From positions 2,962-66,961 of the forward strand of contig CALVKF010000002.1 of the NCBI GenBank assembly GCA_944332555.1: a DNA stretch of 64,000 nucleotides, written 5' to 3'. The notes under the pieces were generated by a model, which saw nothing but the letters and a program-made list of their open reading frames with translations, had not been told where the DNA came from and searched no databases. Shown here piece by piece: positions 6,267 through 38,780 of this stretch (positions within the stretch are counted from its first letter, which is position 1; the number at the start of each line of letters is the position of its first letter). This DNA comes from an uncultured Bacilli bacterium (lineage in GTDB: Bacteria; Bacillota_I; Bacilli_A; RF39; UBA660). The position numbers were made by a program, and so were the translations under genes.

Positions 6267-6357
6267 TGTCGTAATTTGTCGATTCCTCCCTAGTTTTGTC
6301 GAAGTTAAAGACAAATACTAAAAAATGTAGTATAACTAACTTAAGGAGGTTTTGGAA

Positions 6358-6702
6358 ATGTGGTCTTTAAATGAAAAAATATGGAAAAAGTTGTTTAATC
6401 AACCACAAATGTTAGAATTTTTAGAACACTTTATTAGTGAACTTATGAGTATTGATTATGAAGAAGTGCATAATAATATTGTTGTGGATGCTGATGAAAT
6501 AGTAAATAACGAAAAAATCAATTATAAATTATTTCGTCCTTTTGCATTCTTTATATCTTTTCAAAATTATATTATTATATTTTTGAAAAATGACACTTTA
6601 GAAAAAGCAAAAAATCCTAATAATGCAATATTAGCTAAAAAAGTTGCTGATGAATTTTCTAACAAAATAGTCGTATTATTAAATTTAAATTTTTATGACT
6701 AA
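6358..6702 (+). CDS. hypothetical 114-aa protein, paralog of 1804..2133
   Basis: AGGAGG is 8 nt upstream of ATG 6358 (the ORF track begins at TTG 6352). Same length class and motif order as 1804..2133, ending LNLNFYD. Confidence 0.5.
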   Translation: MWSLNEKIWKKLFNQPQMLEFLEHFISELMSIDYEEVHNNIVVDADEIVNNEKINYKLFRPFAFFISFQNYIIIFLKNDTLEKAKNPNNAILAKKVADEFSNKIVVLLNLNFYD

Positions 6703-8882: not shown

Positions 8883-9839
8883 CTAAATTTCTACTAATAA
8901 ATAGATATAATAAATGGCAAATATAGCCAGCATAACAATTGCTTCTTTTTTATCAATTGTTTTTTCGCTTCTAGCAAATATGAATAACATAAATGAAGAT
9001 AGGAATGTGGCAATAATATCAACTATACCAAATCCTGTTAGTACTACATTACCATAAATTAAAACAGGAAGACCTAAAACTATACAAATATTAAATATAT
9101 TAGTACCAATTATATTTCCAATAGCCATATCATATTCACCTTTTTTAGCACTGGTAACAGTCATTACCATCTCTGGAAGACTAGTTCCAACAACTATTGC
9201 AAACATCGTTATTACCTTTTCACTAATGTTAAGCCTCTCGGCAATATTCTGTGCGGCATTAATAATTAAATCACTACTATAAATAATTAAAATAATTGAT
9301 ACAACTAACAAAATAGCTGATAAAATAGGGCCATATTTAATTTCTTGGGTACCACTATCTTGTTCATTACTTTTTTTAAATAACATTTGAATCAAATAAA
9401 CAACAAATAATAAAAACAGTAAAATTAATATTACAGCATCGGTTCTGGAAAATGTATCATCTGTAAATGGGTTAAAGATACTATCAAGCATAAGAATTGA
9501 AAATACTGTAGTTATAATTAGTAAAAGTGGTAATTCTTTTTTAATTGTTGCATGTTTAACTTTAATTGATCTTACAAAAGCTGCAATGCCAATAATTAGA
9601 AAGACATTGACAACACAACTGCCAACAATATTGGCAAAAGCCATTTCGCCATCACCAGTTGCAACACTCCGAAAAGATATAGCAATTTCTGGTGCACAGG
9701 TACCAAATGCAACAATTGTTAGAGCAATAAGCATTTTTGGAACATGCCATTTTAAGGCAAGTGAAGATGCTGCATCAACTAAAAAGTCTGATGCTTTAAT
9801 AATTATAACAAAACCAATTATTAAATATATTACTTGCAT
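8883..9839 (-). CDS. CaCA-family Na+/Ca2+ (cation) antiporter
   Basis: Two alpha-repeat motifs (GTCAPEIAISF and GTSLPEMVMTV) and about 10 TM helices. Start taken at MQVIYLIIGF with a GGTGG RBS. Confidence 0.75.
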   Translation of the reverse strand: MQVIYLIIGFVIIIKASDFLVDAASSLALKWHVPKMLIALTIVAFGTCAPEIAISFRSVATGDGEMAFANIVGSCVVNVFLIIGIAAFVRSIKVKHATIKKELPLLLIITTVFSILMLDSIFNPFTDDTFSRTDAVILILLFLLFVVYLIQMLFKKSNEQDSGTQEIKYGPILSAILLVVSIILIIYSSDLIINAAQNIAERLNISEKVITMFAIVVGTSLPEMVMTVTSAKKGEYDMAIGNIIGTNIFNICIVLGLPVLIYGNVVLTGFGIVDIIATFLSSFMLFIFARSEKTIDKKEAIVMLAIFAIYYIYLLVEI

Positions 9840-25504: not shown

Positions 25505-25582
25505 AATACCTACTTTCTTATATCCATTATATCTTAAAAATAGCTACTTGACAATAACACTAACTTATAGTAATATATTTTT

Positions 25583-25690
25583 ACCGGAGGAAACTCGTCA
25601 GGTCGATAGTTAGGTAGCGTTTTTTTAAATAAGTGTACTGTGTGTGCACCGCCCTAATTGGGAAAAAGCCCCTTTATGGAGCTTTTTTTC
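25583..25690 (+). ncRNA. candidate ~105-nt divergent transcript (family unknown)
   Basis: TTGACA(25548-25553)-17 nt-TAATAT(25571-25576) lies back-to-back with the ABC operon promoter. The locally GC-rich body contains hairpin GUGUAC-UGUGU-GUGCAC. It ends at the hairpin/T-run 25667-25689, which is shared with the convergent gene. No ORF. Confidence 0.3.
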
Positions 25691-26421
25691 TATGGTAAAA
25701 TCATTTTTAAATCAACAAAGTTATTTAACTCATCTTGAATTTCTATATTATTATTTAGTGCCACAATTGATTTATGTCTTATAGTTCCCGCGAGTAGGTC
25801 TGCCGCTTGGACAACATAACTTTTAGCGGAATTCTGATATGTTAATCTAATTTCTAAATCACTTTTGACAATTGGGGCAACACTCATAAAGTAATCAAAA
25901 TTGCTAATGCCATATTTTAATTCTTCAAGTATGCCATCATGCAAATTATAATAGCCATTATTTTTAGTTGTTTGCTGATCAATATTAATAATTATTCTAA
26001 TTGGTGCATCCGGATCAACTTTACCACTGCTAATTAAATTTTTAACTATCTCTTTGATCATTCTTCTTAAACTATAATCTAAAAATCTTCCCTTAGCACC
26101 TTTATTAGTTTTAATATGTTCATAAACTAAGTCATTTTTAATAACTAAAGCTGTTACATAATATTTTTTGATATAATTCATTATTCTTCTTTTATCGGAA
26201 TTTTTGATATTAGTATTTTTTATTTCGGGACATAATTTGTTACATTTACTATTACAATATTTACATTTAATATGATTAACAATACTTCTATATTGCGTAA
26301 CAAATTTATCCTTTTCACTTTTAGATAAAAATACTAAACCACCATAAACACTAATATGTTCATGATTACTTAACTTTCCGGAATCGTCCAAATTGATGTA
26401 TATTTCTTGCATTTTCTTCAT
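25690..26421 (-). CDS. DUF3800-like protein
   Basis: N-terminal IYINLDDSGKL and C-terminal VVQAADLLAGTIRH match the D-E/D-S-G ... Q-x-A-D-x-x-A layout I associate with DUF3800. Confidence 0.45.
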   Translation of the reverse strand: MKKMQEIYINLDDSGKLSNHEHISVYGGLVFLSKSEKDKFVTQYRSIVNHIKCKYCNSKCNKLCPEIKNTNIKNSDKRRIMNYIKKYYVTALVIKNDLVYEHIKTNKGAKGRFLDYSLRRMIKEIVKNLISSGKVDPDAPIRIIINIDQQTTKNNGYYNLHDGILEELKYGISNFDYFMSVAPIVKSDLEIRLTYQNSAKSYVVQAADLLAGTIRHKSIVALNNNIEIQDELNNFVDLKMILP

Positions 26422-27650: not shown

Positions 27651-27733
27651 TAACCCTCCATATAAAATATCTTTGTTAAGTTAATTATAACATTACTTAA
27701 TTTGATAGTAAAGAAAAAAGAGAATACATCTCT

Positions 27734-29008
27734 TTAATAAGTTATAACATCAGATGCATTATAACTGCAATCTACTAAATTTAATTTATTTAATGGTAAA
27801 ACATGATAATCATAGCCGTACATCATAGCTTCTCCTAAATCGTAGTCATCTAACTGTATTACTGCCCCATCAGCAGTTGTACTCGCATTACCAGAGCCAT
27901 CAACACTTATTGAACTAGATGAGATACTTATATTTCCCCAACTGCGATAAGCACCGTTAACATATATTTGATCTAATGTTATTTTATCTAGGCCAATAAC
28001 TTCCGCACCTTCAATTCCTGAAGTAGTGTATTGTATATTAAATTTATCTAAAAGAGCCATAAAATTTATAACTTTATCAAATTGTAATAACATCTCATTA
28101 AGAGAAATTGTATCTCTGCTTAATTCTTGATAAAAATCTTCTGTAATGTAACATGCTAAATCATTATTTTCAATACTACAAGTATAAATAGAACCATAAG
28201 CACTATCTGATTTATATACTTCTAATAATTCTTCATTATAATTGAGTTTATTATCAGAATTACTAATACTGGTATTATCAATAACCTCATTCATTAATTC
28301 TTTTTCTTCTTCTTTATTAATATTTTGATAAGTACTATATTCTATATTTGCCACTTTTTCTTCAATACTTGGATTAGCTGAAGATATTGTGACATTACTA
28401 GTATCAAAGCCACTATCTTTAGCTTGGTTATATAAAATATCTATAGTTTCATTAATGTTCTTATTTTCTAAATCTAAATCATTAAAAGTAGTTATGCAAT
28501 CTTCATTTAAACAAGATTTATTAATTACTTTATCTCCTTCTAATTCTAAAACTATTTTAGGATTTATTTCTATAAATACATAAGATATTTCATTTTCTTT
28601 TACAGTATTTATTTCTTCAATTAATTTATTAGTATTATAATTACTTATTTTTATTTTAATTAAATTAAGCATTAACAACATAAATATTACTAGTAATATA
28701 CCTAAAAATATAAAAATAAATATATTAATTTTTCTTTTAAATTCAATAGCATATACTAAATTGTTATTATCTATATCACTTGGATACAAATATTTAACTT
28801 TTTTACCTAATTTTTCTTTTAATTCCATTATATTTTTAGCTTCATATGTTCTTTTTACTTTTCCTTTTTGATTTTTATTTTCTGTAACAAGTAAAACTTT
28901 ATTATTTGAATTAATATAATCAGTAATATTATCATTTGTTACATAAATACACTTTTTCTTTTTCTTAATATTTTTAAAGTTTTCTAAATCTAGTTTAATT
29001 TCTTGCAT
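27734..29008 (-). CDS. single-pass membrane protein with RsgI-type anti-sigma-like juxtamembrane domain
   Basis: The TM helix (IFIFIFLGILLVIFMLLML) is followed by YVFIEINPKIVLELEGDKVINKSCLNEDC...IDILYNQAKDSGF. This resembles the (I/V)DINPS..L......V....LNED segment of RsgI-like proteins. Confidence 0.35.
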   Translation of the reverse strand: MQEIKLDLENFKNIKKKKKCIYVTNDNITDYINSNNKVLLVTENKNQKGKVKRTYEAKNIMELKEKLGKKVKYLYPSDIDNNNLVYAIEFKRKINIFIFIFLGILLVIFMLLMLNLIKIKISNYNTNKLIEEINTVKENEISYVFIEINPKIVLELEGDKVINKSCLNEDCITTFNDLDLENKNINETIDILYNQAKDSGFDTSNVTISSANPSIEEKVANIEYSTYQNINKEEEKELMNEVIDNTSISNSDNKLNYNEELLEVYKSDSAYGSIYTCSIENNDLACYITEDFYQELSRDTISLNEMLLQFDKVINFMALLDKFNIQYTTSGIEGAEVIGLDKITLDQIYVNGAYRSWGNISISSSSISVDGSGNASTTADGAVIQLDDYDLGEAMMYGYDYHVLPLNKLNLVDCSYNASDVITY

Positions 29009-29056
29009 AGATCCTCCATATAAATTATCTTTGTTAAGATAATTATAACATTTGTA

Positions 29057-30709
29057 TTATTTAATATTCAATACTTTGTTAAATTCATCTTTCATAGCTG
29101 GTCTCTTTGTTAAATAAAGACAACTTATTTCTTCTATTAAATTAGTAACACTTTTATCAGAACCTTTTATTTTAGATATATGACTAATGTTATATGCAAG
29201 AGCACGATAATCACTTCGATCACTCACAAATTTTGCTTTATTTAGACATTCATCAATATATATTTCGATTAATTCTTTATTATATTTCGGTTGTAAATAG
29301 TGATCATAGATTTTTATAACTTCCATTCCCTTATCTTTTATAGCTAAAAATAAATCATCAAACATTTTTTCTTCTACATAAATATTATATATAATACTTC
29401 CGGCATTAGCTTTTTTCAATTTATCTATAATATTTAATTTTTCTTTATCCCAATCTTGTTTATCATATAATTTTTTTATTTTATTATAAGTTTCTAAATC
29501 ATAAATTTGATATTGAAAAAACATTTTATATAATTGCTCTTTATAATCTTTTATCATATTATTATCATAATAAATATTCATCAAATATTCTTCTAAATCT
29601 CTAACCCGATAATCTTCAGCATCTTTTATAATCCTTTCTTTTAATAGCTTTATAGCTTCATCTACACAATGTTCATTTATTAATAAATCAATATATTTTA
29701 AAAATATAGATTTTTCTTTAGAATATTTTTTTAATAAATCTTTAATATTATTTTGTTCTTTTTTTAATTTATAAATATCAATTAAATAATCAACATAATA
29801 TTTTGCTTTATAATAATAATCTTTATCTATGTTTTCATCTAAAACTTCCAATAATGAATTTTCTATTTCATTTATAAATAGTTTATTTTCTACAAAATAA
29901 GAAACAAGACGATATAACTCAATTCCATAATTAGATAAATCTTCAGTTTTAATTTCGGTAATTACAAACTCTAATATTTTATGTGTAAGTTCTTTATCTT
30001 TATTAGCATTATTATTTAAAATATCATAAATTACCTTTATACAATCATTAGCAACCTCACTAGTAAAACCATTGGAGTCATCAATTTCCGTATCAGGAAT
30101 TGATTCCAATATAACTGATACTATATCAAAAGCTAAATTATAGTTCCCTTTTTGGGTAAGTTTTTCCGCTTCATTTGTAAATTCGTACATATTATGGGTA
30201 TATTCCCATGCATTATCGTAATCTATATAACCATAGTTGCCTTCACAGTTTTTTATACTGTCATAAATTTTTATTCTATATTCTTCTTTAGTTAAAGGAT
30301 TGAAATATTCAATAAATTCTACTCGAAATTTATCATATAACTTTGGGTTTGCTGATACTTCATTAATTAAAAATTCTTTTAAAAGATTGATAGGTATTTC
30401 ATTCACTATAGTAGATAAATCACTTTCAGTAGTGATTGTTTCTAAAGTGTTTTCATTACTTAAATAATATAATAATGCTGCGATATGTTTGCAGTTATAG
30501 CGTCCCTCGGAATACGGACAACTACACCCACCGTGCAAAAATTGGTTATTGACAATTTTAACATGCACACTGTATTTAGATGATCCATAAACAACTGCAG
30601 TTATTATATCTCCATCTTTTTTAATGTTTGTTACATTTCCCTTTGCATAAATACTAAAGCCACGCATTAAAATAACAGATTCAAATTCATCTTCAAAAAC
30701 AATATTCAT
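29057..30709 (-). CDS. SWIM zinc-finger protein with helical-repeat C-terminus
   Basis: CSCPYSEGRYNCKHIAALLYYL fits the CxCx(n)CxH SWIM signature. Own promoter TTTACA-17-TATAAT downstream of the sRNA terminator. Confidence 0.65.
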   Translation of the reverse strand: MNIVFEDEFESVILMRGFSIYAKGNVTNIKKDGDIITAVVYGSSKYSVHVKIVNNQFLHGGCSCPYSEGRYNCKHIAALLYYLSNENTLETITTESDLSTIVNEIPINLLKEFLINEVSANPKLYDKFRVEFIEYFNPLTKEEYRIKIYDSIKNCEGNYGYIDYDNAWEYTHNMYEFTNEAEKLTQKGNYNLAFDIVSVILESIPDTEIDDSNGFTSEVANDCIKVIYDILNNNANKDKELTHKILEFVITEIKTEDLSNYGIELYRLVSYFVENKLFINEIENSLLEVLDENIDKDYYYKAKYYVDYLIDIYKLKKEQNNIKDLLKKYSKEKSIFLKYIDLLINEHCVDEAIKLLKERIIKDAEDYRVRDLEEYLMNIYYDNNMIKDYKEQLYKMFFQYQIYDLETYNKIKKLYDKQDWDKEKLNIIDKLKKANAGSIIYNIYVEEKMFDDLFLAIKDKGMEVIKIYDHYLQPKYNKELIEIYIDECLNKAKFVSDRSDYRALAYNISHISKIKGSDKSVTNLIEEISCLYLTKRPAMKDEFNKVLNIK

Positions 30710-30762
30710 AATTACCTCATTTAATTAAGATAATTATATCATTTCATAATATTTATGTAAAC

Positions 30763-30868
30763 AAAAAAAGACCGGCCATTCGGCCGATCATCAGGGGGTT
30801 TTGGTTGATCTCTTCACATTGAGATTCGTAAGAGAGATCAGGTTATCAGCATGATGAAGTATCATGCT
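30763..30868 (-). ncRNA. C-rich small RNA candidate, copy 1 (RsaE/RoxS-like architecture)
   Basis: Promoter TTGACA(30903-30898)-17 nt-TAAGAT(30880-30875). Hairpin 1 is AGCAUGAU/AUCAUGCU (30868-30848) and hairpin 2 spans 30839-30807. The single-stranded linker is AACCAAAACCCCCUGAU. The terminator is GAUCGGCC-GAAU-GGCCGGUC plus U7 (30789-30763). Confidence 0.65.
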
Positions 30869-30917
30869 AGTATAATCTTAATATTTTTTTTGTAGTTTGT
30901 CAATACAATTTTTTAAA

Positions 30918-32912
30918 TTAATCTAAAAAATTTATTTTTTCTAATTCTTTTTCGTAAAGCAAATTTCCCTTATATAGGGACTTTTTCAGGTAAATTTCCG
31001 AATCTTTTTTTGCTTGTAATAAAATTTTATAGTCTCTTTTGAAATCAGCAATTTTAAGTGTTTCTTCCCCACTTTGTTTAACTCCAAATAAGTCGCCATG
31101 ACCACGTTGTTCAAAATCTTTTTCACTTATATAAAAGCCATCATTACTTTCTTCCATTACTTTTAATCTTGCATTATCACTAACATTAGTAACTAAATAA
31201 CAAAAACTTTGAATATCACTTCTACCAACACGGCCCCGAAGTTGATGAAGAGTTGCTAAGCCAAATCTCTCAGCATTAAAAATAACCATCATTGATGCAT
31301 TAGGAATATCAATACCTACTTCAATAACTGTAGTTGAAATTAATATTCTTATTTCTCCCTTTTGAAATTTTAACATCAGTTCATCTTTTTCTTTTTGTTT
31401 TAACTTACCATGAAGTATTTCTATTTTGATTACATCACTATTAAAAGCTTTACTAAGTTTTTCTTTTAATTCATAAACACTATTTAAATTAATTTCATCA
31501 TTTTGTTCAATTAAGGGAGATACTACAAATATTTGATGACCTAATTTTAATTCTTCATACATTTTAAGTAATACTTCTCTAATATTTTTTTCAAGCACTA
31601 CCTTAGTTATAATTTCTTTTCTTAAATTTGGTTTAGTTTTAATTTGCGATAAATCTAGATCACCATAAATAGTTAGAGCATAAGTTCTAGGAATTGGAGT
31701 TGCTGATAAATACAGGACATCCGCATTTTTTTTAGAACCTTTATTTTGCAGGGTATTTCTTTGATTTACCCCAAAACGATGTTGTTCATCAGTTATAACT
31801 AATCCTAAGTTTTTAAATTCTGCTCCCGCATTTAATAAAGCATGAGTTCCAATTATTAAATCAATTTCTCCCTGTTCTAATCTTTCATATATTTTTTCTT
31901 TTTGCTTTTTAGTTAAACTACCAGTTAGTAATTCTACTTTTATATCATAATTGCTAAAATAATTTTTTACTTGTTCATAATGTTGTTTAGCAAGTATTTC
32001 TGTCGGGGCCATAAAAGCACTTTGATAGCCACTTAAAAAACAGGCATAAATAGCAGTTATAGCTACAATTGTTTTACCACTACCAACATCTCCTAGGACT
32101 AAACGATTCATTCTTTTATCACTTTTTAAATCATTTAAAATATCACTTATTGTTGTTTCTTGATCTGTAGTTAATTTAAAACTTAAGTTACTTAAAAATT
32201 CATTTAACTCATCTTCTCTAAAATATTTCGGAGTGCCAAGAGCCTCTTTATTAATAGTACTTAAATAATTTATTTTAAACATATATAAAAATAATTCTTC
32301 ATATATTAATTTTAATTCACTTTTTTTAATATCTTCAACACTATTAGGTTGATGAATTAATCTTATAGCATCTCTTTTAGATAATAACTTATAATGAATA
32401 TTAAACATTTCTGGGACATAATCTGGTATATCATAATCAAGTTTTAAAGCTTCTCCAATTAATTTTTCTAAAGTATTATTTTTAATCCCTTCAGTTAAGT
32501 GATATTTAACTTCTATTTTGTTATCTTCAACACTAAATTTTATATCACTTGCTACAAAAGTATTTTTTAATTTATTATATTTACCAATTAATACTACTTC
32601 TTTATTAATAGTTAAATTATTCTTTAAAAAAGCTCTATTAAATATTGTTACTTTAAAATTTATATTATTACTTGATGCAATAAAATCTAATTTATTAAAA
32701 TTTCTCCTGATATAAAAAACTTTACAAGCACTCAAAATAGTGGCGGGTACAAAACACACTTCGCCATCAGTTACTTCATCAATATTTTTTAACTTAATAA
32801 TATTATATCTATAGGGGTAAAATGTTAGTAAATCTTCTACAGTATAAATATTTAATTTATTAAGTAAATTTTCGGTTTTTGGTCCAATATTTTTAATTAA
32901 ATTCAAATTCAT
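30918..32912 (-). CDS. recG: ATP-dependent DNA helicase RecG
   Basis: Wedge/OB N-terminus and helicase motifs GDVGSGKT, DEQHRFG, SATPIPRT, QLRGRVGR. Confidence 0.9.
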   Translation of the reverse strand: MNLNLIKNIGPKTENLLNKLNIYTVEDLLTFYPYRYNIIKLKNIDEVTDGEVCFVPATILSACKVFYIRRNFNKLDFIASSNNINFKVTIFNRAFLKNNLTINKEVVLIGKYNKLKNTFVASDIKFSVEDNKIEVKYHLTEGIKNNTLEKLIGEALKLDYDIPDYVPEMFNIHYKLLSKRDAIRLIHQPNSVEDIKKSELKLIYEELFLYMFKINYLSTINKEALGTPKYFREDELNEFLSNLSFKLTTDQETTISDILNDLKSDKRMNRLVLGDVGSGKTIVAITAIYACFLSGYQSAFMAPTEILAKQHYEQVKNYFSNYDIKVELLTGSLTKKQKEKIYERLEQGEIDLIIGTHALLNAGAEFKNLGLVITDEQHRFGVNQRNTLQNKGSKKNADVLYLSATPIPRTYALTIYGDLDLSQIKTKPNLRKEIITKVVLEKNIREVLLKMYEELKLGHQIFVVSPLIEQNDEINLNSVYELKEKLSKAFNSDVIKIEILHGKLKQKEKDELMLKFQKGEIRILISTTVIEVGIDIPNASMMVIFNAERFGLATLHQLRGRVGRSDIQSFCYLVTNVSDNARLKVMEESNDGFYISEKDFEQRGHGDLFGVKQSGEETLKIADFKRDYKILLQAKKDSEIYLKKSLYKGNLLYEKELEKINFLD

Positions 32913-32990
32913 AATGTGCTCCTAAAAATATTATAACAAAATTATCAAAAAAGTGTTGACAAACTTACAAAAATCGGTTAGGATATTAAT

Positions 32991-33087
32991 CACCAATTCA
33001 CTTAAAGGCGAATTGGTGCTAGTATCACACTAGTCAACCCCTTTTTATTCTTTTGAAGCACTCGAATGAGTGCTTCGTATTTTTTTG
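32991..33087 (+). ncRNA. C-rich small RNA candidate, copy 2 (paralog of 30763..30868)
   Basis: Promoter TTGACA(32956-32961)-17 nt-TAGGAT(32979-32984). Hairpin CACCAAUUC/GAAUUGGUG, then hairpin CUAGU/ACUAG. The linker is UCAACCCCUUUUUAUUCUUUU. The terminator is GAAGCACUC-GAAU-GAGUGCUUC plus a U-run (33055-33087). There is no downstream plus-strand gene. Confidence 0.65.
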
Positions 33088-33103: not shown

Positions 33104-34219
33104 TCATTTTGAGTTGTTATTTTCATTGTCAGTTTTATTACCATGAGTATAATCTGCCGCAGCATTATTATTAGGATTATCAAAACTAAATTGTGGTGGA
33201 TTAGGATTTTCTTTATCAACTGGAGATTTAGTTTCTTTAAATGTCTCAACCATTGCTAAACTCTCAACATCTTCAGTATTACCAACTGGAGTATTTAGAG
33301 AATCAACTAGTTTTTTATCAATATTTAAAGTCTCTAAACTTTCAACATTAGCATTATTAGTTTGATTGTTAGTAACATTTAAGTTATCAACATTATTATT
33401 TGTATTTTGATTGTTAATAACTTCAGAGTTATCAACATTATTATTTGGTACATCAACAACATTACTAGTACCAGCAACGCTTTTAGGCATATGTTTAACA
33501 TCAATGTTACCTTTTTTCTTGATTAGATTTGATGCTAAAAGCAAGAAAACTAAAGCAATAAATATACCGCCACCAATTAAGATGTAATTCCAAGGTATAG
33601 GGTTTAATTTAAAATCTAAAGTTATTTCATTTGTTTTAGTTAAATCCCAAGTTAATGTTCTACCATCTTCTGATACACTAGTTGCATTGTGATTTTCTGG
33701 TTTATTTGGTAGTCTTACAACAAATAGCGCATCGATATAATCACTATATTCGCTATTTTCTTCTGAACTATAATCACTTTCGCTATCTATATAAATCTTT
33801 AGAGAATATACACCACCGCTATAAGTAAATATTTTTAAATCTTCTGTAGTCAACATCTCTTGAAGATTTTGGTTAGCATCATCACTCACCAAGGAAGAAA
33901 TATTACTAAAAGTTTTAGAAAAACTTAAACCTTTGTAAGTATCATCACTATAATGTTCTTTAACATATCCGTAATCTACCGGATTGTCTTCAGATTCATT
34001 ATACATTGTATCAATTGCTTCCCATCGTTGTTCATCAGTATAACCAGTTGCTAAATCTATTTCATCAAGCATAACATTATCAATAAATTCATCATCAAAA
34101 GCTGCAATACCTGTAATTACAACTGTTTCATCATCATTAATTGTAATATTAAATTCTTCCTTTACTGCACAACCACTAGTTAAAAGTAAAACTATAATTA
34201 AACATATAAACTTCTTCAT
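33104..34219 (-). CDS. lipoprotein with C-terminal TM helix and Asn-rich tail
   Basis: Lipobox LLLTSGC, a TM helix (ILIGGGIFIALVFLLLASNLI), and a low-complexity N/V/D tail. Confidence 0.55.
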   Translation of the reverse strand: MKKFICLIIVLLLTSGCAVKEEFNITINDDETVVITGIAAFDDEFIDNVMLDEIDLATGYTDEQRWEAIDTMYNESEDNPVDYGYVKEHYSDDTYKGLSFSKTFSNISSLVSDDANQNLQEMLTTEDLKIFTYSGGVYSLKIYIDSESDYSSEENSEYSDYIDALFVVRLPNKPENHNATSVSEDGRTLTWDLTKTNEITLDFKLNPIPWNYILIGGGIFIALVFLLLASNLIKKKGNIDVKHMPKSVAGTSNVVDVPNNNVDNSEVINNQNTNNNVDNLNVTNNQTNNANVESLETLNIDKKLVDSLNTPVGNTEDVESLAMVETFKETKSPVDKENPNPPQFSFDNPNNNAAADYTHGNKTDNENNNSK

Positions 34220-37561: not shown

Positions 37562-37736
37562 GTTTATCATCTCCGTACTATATTAATTATACCTTAAAAT
37601 TGCGAAATTGAAAATAAAACATGCAAAAAAAATTAAAATGTGAAGTGAAAAAATTAAAAAACGACAATTTACTATTGATTAATTTTTTATTTATGATAAA
37701 CTATATTTAGAAAGGACTTTTATGGTGCAGGGGGTA

Positions 37737-37765
37737 TTGACATCGATACTAATTTATAGTACAAT
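37737..37765 (+). promoter_or_regulatory. sigma-A-type promoter of the Abi-like gene
   Basis: TTGACA(37737-37742)-17 nt-TACAAT(37760-37765). Confidence 0.6.
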
Positions 37766-37778
37766 AATTATGTATTGA

Positions 37779-37814
37779 TCTTCGGTATCCCGTGTGGACC
37801 GAAGACGTTTTTTT
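37779..37814 (+). promoter_or_regulatory. 5' leader hairpin plus U7 (terminator/attenuator-like), ending at the start codon
   Basis: 8-bp stem TCTTCGGT/ACCGAAGA (37779-37786, 37798-37805), 11-nt loop ATCCCGTGTGG, then CG plus T7 (37808-37814) abutting ATG 37815. Confidence 0.6.
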
Positions 37815-38780
37815 ATGAAAGATTTTAAATTAGTAACAGAACAAGTCGATTTATTAAAATCAAGAGGTATGTTATTTGAAGATGAACAAGATGCTATATG
37901 TAAGTTATTAAGTGATAACTATTATAATATAATTAATGGATATAAAGACTTGTTTTTAGATACTACTAACAATCAAGAGGTGTTTAAAACCGGTACAACT
38001 TTTAATGAGATATATGCATTATATGAATTTGATAATCAATTAAAAAATATTTTTTTAGAATATATTTTAAAAATTGAAAACATTTTAAGAACTCAAGTAG
38101 CATATCATTTTTCAAGCTTTCACGGAAATGATAATTATTTAAAAATTGATAACTTTGATACTTTTTCATATAATACTTTTATCAACCCTAATCTAAAAGA
38201 AAAACAAATTAAACATATACAATTGTTAATCAGCAATTTAAACAAAAAAATTGCTGATTCGATAAGTAGTACTAAATATATTAATCATTATATCATGAAT
38301 TACGGTTTTATACCTTTATGGGTACTAGTTAATATTTTATCTTTCGGAGATATTTGCAATTTTTATAAATTAATGAATCAAAATGAAAGAATTCATATAA
38401 CAATGTTTTGGGGAATTAGCGATAATGACTTAAAGAGTTTTTTAGGAATCCTATGTCACACAAGAAATTTATGCGCACACAATGAAAGACTTTTTAATTA
38501 TAGCTTTCCTACTAGAGAAACTATAAATGATACAAATTATCACAATTTATTAAATATTCCATCAATAAATAATAGATTTCAATATGGAAAAAATGATTTA
38601 TTTGCTGTAATGATTGTGTTAAAAACATTACTTACTAAAGAAGACTATCAAAAATTTCATTCAAAGATTTACAGCCGATTAAAAAGTATTGAATCAAAAA
38701 TTAAAACGATTTCTTTGAATGACATTCTGGTAGCAATGAATTTCCCGTATAACTGGCATAGTTTATTAAAAATGTCCTAA
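37815..38780 (+). CDS. Abi_2 (AbiD/AbiF-like) abortive-infection family protein
   Basis: MKDFKLVTEQVDLLKSRGMLFEDEQDAICKLLSDNYYNIINGYKDLF... and ..LCHTRNLCAHNERLFN match the Abi-like (PF07751-type) N-terminus and the conserved R-N-x-x-A-H motif. The GTG start at 37794 in the ORF track lies inside the leader hairpin. Confidence 0.65.
   Translation: MKDFKLVTEQVDLLKSRGMLFEDEQDAICKLLSDNYYNIINGYKDLFLDTTNNQEVFKTGTTFNEIYALYEFDNQLKNIFLEYILKIENILRTQVAYHFSSFHGNDNYLKIDNFDTFSYNTFINPNLKEKQIKHIQLLISNLNKKIADSISSTKYINHYIMNYGFIPLWVLVNILSFGDICNFYKLMNQNERIHITMFWGISDNDLKSFLGILCHTRNLCAHNERLFNYSFPTRETINDTNYHNLLNIPSINNRFQYGKNDLFAVMIVLKTLLTKEDYQKFHSKIYSRLKSIESKIKTISLNDILVAMNFPYNWHSLLKMS

Follow-up and report, generated by a model that had tools for sequence, protein, structure and literature searches.

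Two short intergenic stretches flanking the recG gene in a 64,000-nt region of contig CALVKF010000002.1 (assembly GCA_944332555.1; hereafter the window) raise the question whether they encode small RNAs (sRNAs) and, if so, whether these RNAs are copies of one gene or products of two different genes. The stretch following recG is referred to as unit 1 and the one divergent from the recG start as unit 2; recG itself (30918-32912, minus strand, 664 aa, Pfam RecG_wedge, DEAD, Helicase_C, and RecG_dom3_C) sits between both units and is treated as context only. We consider it rather probable that both are separate genes encoding different trans-acting sRNAs of ~100 nt, each with its own promoter and terminator and each with an invariant C-rich seed for antisense pairing. 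A first-pass annotation of this DNA had already proposed two sRNA genes with own promoters and terminators; conserved promoter hexamers and covarying terminator stems in related genomes bear this out, and all elements that it had listed, i.e., promoters, hairpins, linkers, and terminators with GAAU loops, are present where it had placed them.

Related loci were searched by BLAST and with the covariance models R1 (unit 1) and R2 (unit 2), which were derived from MAFFT alignments and the minimum-free-energy (MFE) structures of the window. The comparison set consists of 79 RecG-anchored loci, one genome per species, plus six contigs with identical RecG, and RecG identity of the loci examined ranges from 53 to 99%. 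Using these models, homologues of unit 1 were recovered in 58 and homologues of unit 2 in ~70 of the 79 loci, and the architecture proposed for the window is thus kept among relatives. The core of unit 2 exceeds 90% nucleotide identity even where RecG is only 53-57% identical. Besides the genome loci, unit 2 occurs in more than 120 metagenome contigs, a sample that was drawn by the sequence of its conserved module (see below) alone and is unbiased with respect to recG. On one metagenome contig (L175), two complete unit 2 genes are located ~790 nt apart (150-177 and 940-967, both on the minus strand), with differing terminator stems and an identical G-run loop; sibling copies of unit 2 therefore exist in some genomes.

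With a G+C content of 27%, the window finds its closest RecG matches in UMGS910, labeled 'uncultured Tenericutes' (99%), and in Candidatus Onthocola stercorigallinarum (97%), and Onthocola is placed by NCBI in Bacilli incertae sedis. Judged by RecG identity, the window is from an uncultured gut Bacilli lineage. Record titles of the relatives name Candidatus Onthocola, Candidatus Coprovivens, 'uncultured Tenericutes', CAG:460, CAG:472, and CAG:609; together, these genomes presumably form the RF39-type lineage.

In alignments which were fitted to R1 and R2, so that all pair counts are biased towards the structure, 93.3% of the unit 1 cells form standard pairs (30-51% if the partners are slid) and 24 of 30 pairs are changed on both sides, whereas 98.5% of the unit 2 cells form standard pairs (22-46% if slid) and all nine pairs of the terminator and two of hairpin 1 covary. 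For each unit, the covariation score was reached by none of 500 shuffles. Compensatory changes are also seen in the raw sequences, e.g., AAUUC/GAAUU replaced by AAAUC/GAUUU, along with wholly different terminator stems. Both linkers are invariant while the adjoining stems vary. A conserved reading frame was found in neither unit. The description of both units as free of open reading frames (ORFs) applies to unit 2, which has no ATG ORF, but not literally to unit 1, which contains a 24-codon ATG ORF in the window; this ORF is not conserved, as it is disrupted in the nearest relatives and only eight codons long there. The comparison shows that both genes exist, code for no protein, are subject to strong purifying selection, have the structure proposed for them, and expose an invariant seed.

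The promoter of unit 1 (30875-30903, minus strand) is composed of a -35 box TTGACA (30903-30898), a 17-nt spacer, and a -10 box TAAGAT (30880-30875), and thereby matches 10 of 12 consensus positions. The sRNA of ~105 nt (30763-30873, minus strand) has its predicted start near 30868 and is spanned by the covariance model from 30873 to 30767 (R1, 97.6 bits, E = 9e-17). Its predicted fold reaches -38.3 kcal/mol (z = -6.6), with none of 200 shuffles as good. Hairpin 1 (30847-30869, 9 bp, UAGCAUGAU/AUCAUGCUG), supported by fold and alignment, is paired in 98.8% of the cells, and five of its nine pairs are changed on both sides. Hairpin 2 (30806-30840, 13 bp with a 1-nt bulge), supported likewise, shows double changes in every pair of its basal stem. 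Its apical stem UUACG/UGUGA is kept, including the G-U wobbles, with a change from C-G to U-A in five sequences. The terminator consists of an 8-bp G+C-rich stem with a GAAU loop (30789-30770) followed by seven U residues (30769-30763), and all eight pairs carry double changes among relatives. Between hairpin 2 and the terminator, fold and conservation indicate a C-rich single-stranded linker (30790-30805, minus strand) with the putative seed ACCAAAACCCCCUGAU, comprising CC and one C5 run. Except for one A/G position, the linker part 30805-30793 (ACCAAAACCCCCU) is constant in relatives, with the pattern ACC(A/G)AAACCCCCU, and its mean unpaired probability is 0.96 in 49 homologues versus 0.36 elsewhere in the RNA.

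In unit 2, the promoter (32956-32984, plus strand) comprises a -35 box TTGACA (32956-32961), a 17-nt spacer, and a -10 box TAGGAT (32979-32984), and again 10 of 12 positions agree with the consensus. It points away from recG, and a candidate promoter of recG on the minus strand (32959-32930) overlaps with it. The sRNA of ~97 nt (32987-33087, plus strand; R2, 109.9 bits, E = 5e-21) has its predicted start near 32991 and a predicted MFE of -31.7 kcal/mol (z = -5.8; none of 200 shuffles as good). Hairpin 1 (32991-33018, 11 bp, CACCAAUUCAC and GCGAAUUGGUG), seen in fold and alignment, is paired in 100% of the cells, with compensation from U-A to A-U in eight sequences and from C-G to U-A in one. 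The intrinsic terminator (33054-33087, stem-loop 33054-33077) is predicted to fold into a 10-bp stem with a GAAU loop and a U-run, and double changes occur in all nine aligned pairs. Hairpin 2 (CUAGUAUCACACUAG, 33019-33033), with an invariant stem of 5 bp according to the fold, and the C-rich single-stranded linker UCAACCCCUUUUUAUUCUUU (33034-33053, fold and conservation) together form a module of 37 nt (33018-33054, plus strand). Among 44 distinct homologues the module, GCUAGUAUCACACUAGYCAACCCCUUUUUAUUCUUU, is constant except for one Y. Its linker contains a single C4 run, CCCCUUUUUA, and is unpaired with a probability of 0.99, compared to 0.36-0.38 for the other parts of both RNAs. The annotation of an unpaired C-rich stretch, as in sRNAs of Firmicutes which target Shine-Dalgarno (SD) sequences, agrees with these values and with the invariance of both linkers. 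In the region of recG and the units, four terminator-like sites are present versus 0.7 expected.

The favored reading implies that a strong sigma-70-type promoter and an intrinsic terminator of its own would delimit the transcript of each unit. The C-rich stretch would be held single-stranded between structured domains, i.e., ACCAAAACCCCCU in unit 1 and YCAACCCCUUUUUAUUC behind the invariant 5-bp hairpin in unit 2, and would pair antisense with G-rich sequences of other RNAs. Likely partners would be SD-like AGGGGG or AAAGGGG sequences at translation initiation regions, where pairing may change translation or stability, as for RsaE/RoxS-type sRNAs in other Bacilli. Expression as discrete RNAs, action by base pairing, and the nature of the targets are what we infer.

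In most lineages the second RNA itself provides a candidate partner. The terminator loop of unit 2 reads YCAGGGGG in 104 of 159 distinct variants (65%), on 75 different stems, as in the homologues L033 (2693-2793), L041 (2683-2784), and L070 (2816-2918), all on the minus strand. UCAGGGGG of this loop is the exact complement of the invariant CCCCCUGA of unit 1, and perfect complements of 8-11 nt between both RNAs occur in ~30 of 76 contigs carrying both genes. In lineage L070, matching changes are found on both RNAs, CCCCCUUGG in unit 1 and CCAAGGGGG in the unit 2 loop. The complementary loop together with this double change indicates that the C-run of unit 1 is used for RNA-RNA pairing, and suggests that both RNAs may pair with each other in most lineages in the manner of RoxS and RosA.

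For targets among messenger RNAs, a search of all loci for 9-mer complements of the seeds yielded only isolated candidates, in genes unrelated to one another. In case of unit 1, AGGAGGUUUUGG at 6335-6360 (plus strand) of the window is complementary to the seed at 11 of 12 positions and covers the SD of an ORF (6352-6702) encoding 114 aa with no assigned function, and CGGGGGUUUUAAAAUG precedes an unannotated ORF in the related genomes L020 (7793), L021 (7818), and L026 (7441), all on the plus strand. A family of small proteins (~85-100 aa), acidic at the N-terminus and with a WFIRIG motif in a membrane segment at the C-terminus, has members in L118, L143, L163, L174, L181, and L208 and similar proteins in L231, L144, and L183. 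Its genes appear convergent to unit 2 in one subclade (coordinates checked in L143 only), and in at least six of them a candidate start codon is preceded by a G-run (CAGGGGUGA, UUGGGGGUG, ACGGGGGGAU). These genes with their G-run SDs could be a target in that subclade; a homologue of the family was not found in the window. A G-run at 37727-37734 of the window was dismissed as a target: it is situated upstream of a -35 box and is therefore probably not transcribed with the gene.

Several observations weigh against the favored reading. Duplex energies of the seeds with 57 translation initiation regions of the window are no better than those of shuffled seeds, and upstream of ORFs in the 64 kb only two weak cases of G-run sites were found. 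The usual SD in this DNA is GGAGG or AGGAG, so that a C-A mismatch would have to be accepted for the C5 run to pair with it. In unit 2, the 37 invariant nt include a hairpin stem which never covaries; this exceeds the needs of a pairing seed and suggests recognition by a protein or another role. Finally, the clade of the window lacks the G-rich loop of unit 2, and the longest complement between its two RNAs is 5 nt, so that mutual pairing does not apply to the window.

The 37-nt module (GCTAGTATCACACTAGCCAACCCCTTTTTATTCTTTT) is also present in five IMG/VR contigs of one tailed-phage family. Exact matches are located at 6429-6456 (plus) of L086, 4319-4346 (minus) of L087, 10663-10690 (minus) of L088, 8114-8141 (plus) of L089, and 9470-9497 (minus) of L090. 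These contigs are mutually 75-88% identical and encode a large terminase subunit, a portal protein, a major head protein, and a scaffolding protein according to PHROGs. The phage copies come without the promoter, hairpin 1, and terminator of unit 2. Instead, they lie directly 3' of a tRNA-like end (...CCCACCA), in the order GGUUCGAGUCCUUUCUUUCCCACCA, CG, CUAGUAUC, within an ORF-free region of ~800-900 nt, which is preceded or followed by a late-regulator-like gene on one side and the terminase/portal block on the other, and on the same strand as the phage genes. As a tRNA or tmRNA the upstream element could not be identified: ARAGORN reported nothing unless introns were allowed and the Rfam tRNA model scored 35 bits in one phage type only, and it is therefore called tRNA-like only. 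No match was obtained from plasmid or GenBank phage records. When IMG/VR was searched for the seed pattern of unit 1, 23 of 26 hits were fortuitous and lay within coding regions.

Considering these phage copies and the complementarity of both RNAs, it is conceivable, though on balance unlikely, that the units constitute a regulator-sponge module throughout the order, in which the C5 run of unit 1 would pair with the G-loop of unit 2 in most lineages, and which tailed phages would hijack by expressing the invariant hairpin and seed of unit 2. The phage copy would then be released from a tRNA-like precursor by tRNA-processing enzymes of the host and might either reprogram host targets or titrate a host partner.

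A second explanation takes unit 2, or its 37-nt module, mainly for a protein-binding or structure-specific RNA, which might, for instance, sequester or recruit the ribosome, an RNase, or an RNA-binding protein, and which phages would have copied to exploit the same partner. All 37 positions, including both strands and the loop of hairpin 2, are invariant in 44 host sequences, in which hairpin 1 and the terminator covary, and an identical block is kept in four distinct phage sequences with flanks of 73-88% identity. Furthermore, the linker can be likened to the 3' tail of 16S rRNA, which we assume to read UCACCUCCUUUCU. We regard this explanation as rather improbable: a candidate protein was not identified, pairing sRNAs typically have such an unpaired, C/U-rich tail beside the terminator, and the best, albeit weak, Rfam resemblance is to NmsRb, an sRNA that pairs through an anti-SD sequence.

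The conserved blocks could also act at the DNA level, with the sRNA genes as landing pads of integrating elements and the phage module as core of an attP site. The 37-bp block shared by phage and host is identical and sharply bounded. At unit 1, homology to strains with 94-99% identity ends exactly at the terminator (30748-30765 of the window), and strain L010 lacks 3 kb (27699-30724) with a SWIM-domain and an RsgI-like gene. In the IMG/VR contig L093 (5259-6374 and 6618-6714), a homologue of unit 1 has a tyrosine integrase and an S24 repressor of the CI-like type beside its 3' end. Due to this break and the integrase of L093, the 3' end of unit 1 looks like a hot spot of integration or recombination. 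Recombination sites leave promoters, terminators, stem covariation, and order-wide invariance unexplained, and would add to an RNA function rather than replace it. Moreover, no split unit 2 was found in the host loci, and the phage module lies between the late-regulator-like gene and the terminase/portal block with no integrase nearby. The invariant block with varying flanks, the same-strand position, and the missing integrase speak for a function of the phage module at the RNA level, where it may act as mimic or decoy, rather than for an attP core. As an account of the conserved blocks, recombination sites are therefore considered quite unlikely.

That both units are paralogous copies of a single RsaE/RoxS-like sRNA, co-regulated by one factor through a shared promoter, was the proposal of the first-pass annotation. 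Several features of the window invite this view. The order of parts is the same (promoter, two hairpins, C-rich linker, and terminator), the -35 box and spacer are nearly identical, UCAACC opens both linkers, each of which contains a C-run, and CCCCUUU resembles C-rich regions of RoxS. The transcribed bodies do not align: pairwise alignment matches only the promoter and the T-run. Searches with R1 and R2 at E <= 10 gave only self matches, antisense self matches, and noise, and the models do not detect each other. Further copies of either unit were not found in the 64 kb, where only antisense self matches and noise with E > 0.5 occurred. The common GAAU loop is true for the window, but relatives carry GCAA, UUCG, GAAA, and, most often, YCAGGGGG; the GAAU loops of both units are a coincidence of the window's clade.

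The shared promoter is not kept in relatives either. In both units the -35 and -10 hexamers (TTGAC, spacing, and -10) are retained, and A/T tracts precede the -35 box of unit 2. The spacer sequence is conserved for neither unit, and no conserved block is seen between -45 and -35 in promoter profiles which reach to -45 (the RoxS box lies near -65). In the window, the 10-mer TTGACAAACT occurs exactly twice, at the promoters of unit 1 and unit 2, but the longer shared pattern, with up to three mismatches, occurs three times versus 1.25 expected and is thus not above chance. A regulator common to both units, which the annotation had derived from this sequence, does not follow from it.

Known families were checked with Rfam 15 in four cmscan runs, including lax-filter runs of each isolated unit (stretches of 113 nt and 123 nt). 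No clean match was obtained: neither unit reaches the gathering threshold of any family, and sub-threshold hits are noise only (ncr1241 with 20 bits, NmsRb with 25, SorX with 15, and snoRNAs). The RsaE model (RF01820) is absent at E <= 10 both on 2.5 kb and on the isolated 113-nt and 123-nt stretches with the laxest filters, and the single C-run differs from the duplicated regions of RsaE. What is left of the likeness to RsaE is the resemblance of the seeds, CCCCUUUUUA versus CCCCUUUGUU. Considering also the unalignable bodies and the divergent loops and spacers, descent from one RsaE/RoxS-like gene is very unlikely, and units 1 and 2 are two distinct new sRNA families of a known kind.

Least credible of all, to the point of being hardly worth entertaining, is a cis-acting role, with unit 1 as 3' untranslated region and terminator of recG or as leader of the SWIM-domain gene and unit 2 as leader or attenuator: unit 1 does start 45 nt past the recG stop codon with no terminator between, so that read-through from recG would end at its terminator, and a further 54 nt separate unit 1 from the start of the SWIM-domain gene, which has the same orientation. 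Against this role, the promoter of unit 1 is conserved, several genomes have unit 1 inverted or at a distance of 1-2 kb from recG, and different genes follow it even among strains of 99% identity. For the SWIM-domain gene, a separate promoter-like site is present (30761-30733). The gene behind unit 2 is convergent to it, and recG lies beside unit 2 in only 73 of 105 informative metagenome contigs.

With regard to the genomic neighborhood, unit 2 is divergent from recG in the RecG-anchored loci. Among 105 informative metagenome contigs, recG is adjacent to unit 2 in 73, absent from that position in 29, and otherwise arranged in three. Unit 1 usually follows recG, except for those genomes with an inverted or distant copy. 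Due to the variable orientation, distance, and neighbors, the units are free-standing genes and not leaders or 3' untranslated regions of particular genes; their position around recG is a frequent synteny with no functional link to recG. The gene 3' of unit 2 (33104-34219, minus strand), which is convergent to it, encodes a protein of 371 aa with no Pfam match, a lipoprotein-like signal peptide (LLTSGC), and a low-complexity, N/D/V-rich C-terminal part, and is divergent or replaced in related genomes.

Two further RNA elements were observed in the window. A DUF3800-I RNA (RF02969, 58.7 bits, above the gathering score) at 25576-25697 (plus strand) extends into the 3' end of the oppositely oriented gene for the DUF3800 protein (25690-26421, minus strand). 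Just upstream of an Abi_2 (abortive infection) gene (37794-38780), a near-consensus promoter (TTGACA, 17-nt spacer, TACAAT) is followed by a hairpin formed by UCUUCGGU and ACCGAAGA and by a U-run (37737-37815, plus strand); this element may be a short leader, an attenuator, or an sRNA.

Almost nothing is known of RNA regulation in uncultured gut Bacilli with reduced genomes. Both sRNAs would be the first candidate core riboregulators of this group, with a conservation comparable to that of RsaE/RoxS in the Bacillales. Their invariant seeds are ready probes for metatranscriptomes and can be used to query complete genomes for predicted targets. The complementarity of seed and loop, together with the phage module, suggests testable cross-talk between sRNAs and phage mimicry in organisms that cannot yet be grown.

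Among known systems, RsaE/RoxS of the Bacillales (RF01820) is the closest in kind. Shared features are the length of ~100 nt, the own promoter, the intrinsic terminator, the unpaired C-rich stretch, and a conservation which is unusually deep for a trans-acting sRNA. C-rich regions of RoxS read CCCCUUUGUU and pair with SD regions (PMC4409812), and the unit 2 seed CCCCUUUUUA is identical to this sequence at 8 of 10 positions. In contrast, RsaE/RoxS possesses three to four C-rich regions, designated CRR1-4, and contains the CCCCUUUGUU stretch in duplicate (PMC4409812), compared to one C-run per RNA here, and the stem-loops differ. Partners of RsaE/RoxS are mRNAs of central metabolism, which are bound at their SD regions; for the units, no significant target was found within the 64 kb of the window. 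The RoxS promoter contains a ResD/SrrA box near -65 (PMC4409812), whereas no conserved regulator box was seen upstream of the units in the profile reaching -45. Unlike RsaE/RoxS, the units are located at the flanks of recG in an uncultured gut Bacilli host with a reduced genome.

The best Rfam resemblance of unit 2, with 24.9 bits versus a gathering score of 52, is to the Neisseria sibling sRNAs NmsRb/NgncR (RF02877), which have the same layout of a 5' hairpin, a C/U-rich anti-SD single strand, and a terminator. This likeness concerns architecture alone, since the phylum is unrelated, the score is far below the threshold, and there is no sequence homology. Like tRNA, tmRNA, and sRNA genes that serve as integration sites, unit 1 borders a strain-variable island with its 3' end and adjoins an integrase/repressor pair in L093; compared to such sites, the case is known here from one prophage end.

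Finally, the sRNA RoxS and its sponge RosA of B. subtilis provide a model for the relation of both units to each other. Compared with this pair (PMC8216469), the G-rich element of relatives is the terminator loop of an RNA which has a C-rich seed of its own, is absent in the window's clade, and points to an interaction through complementarity and one apparent double change. As expected of a sponge or partner RNA that titrates a C-rich sRNA, the G-loop of unit 2 is exactly complementary to the seed of unit 1 in most relatives.

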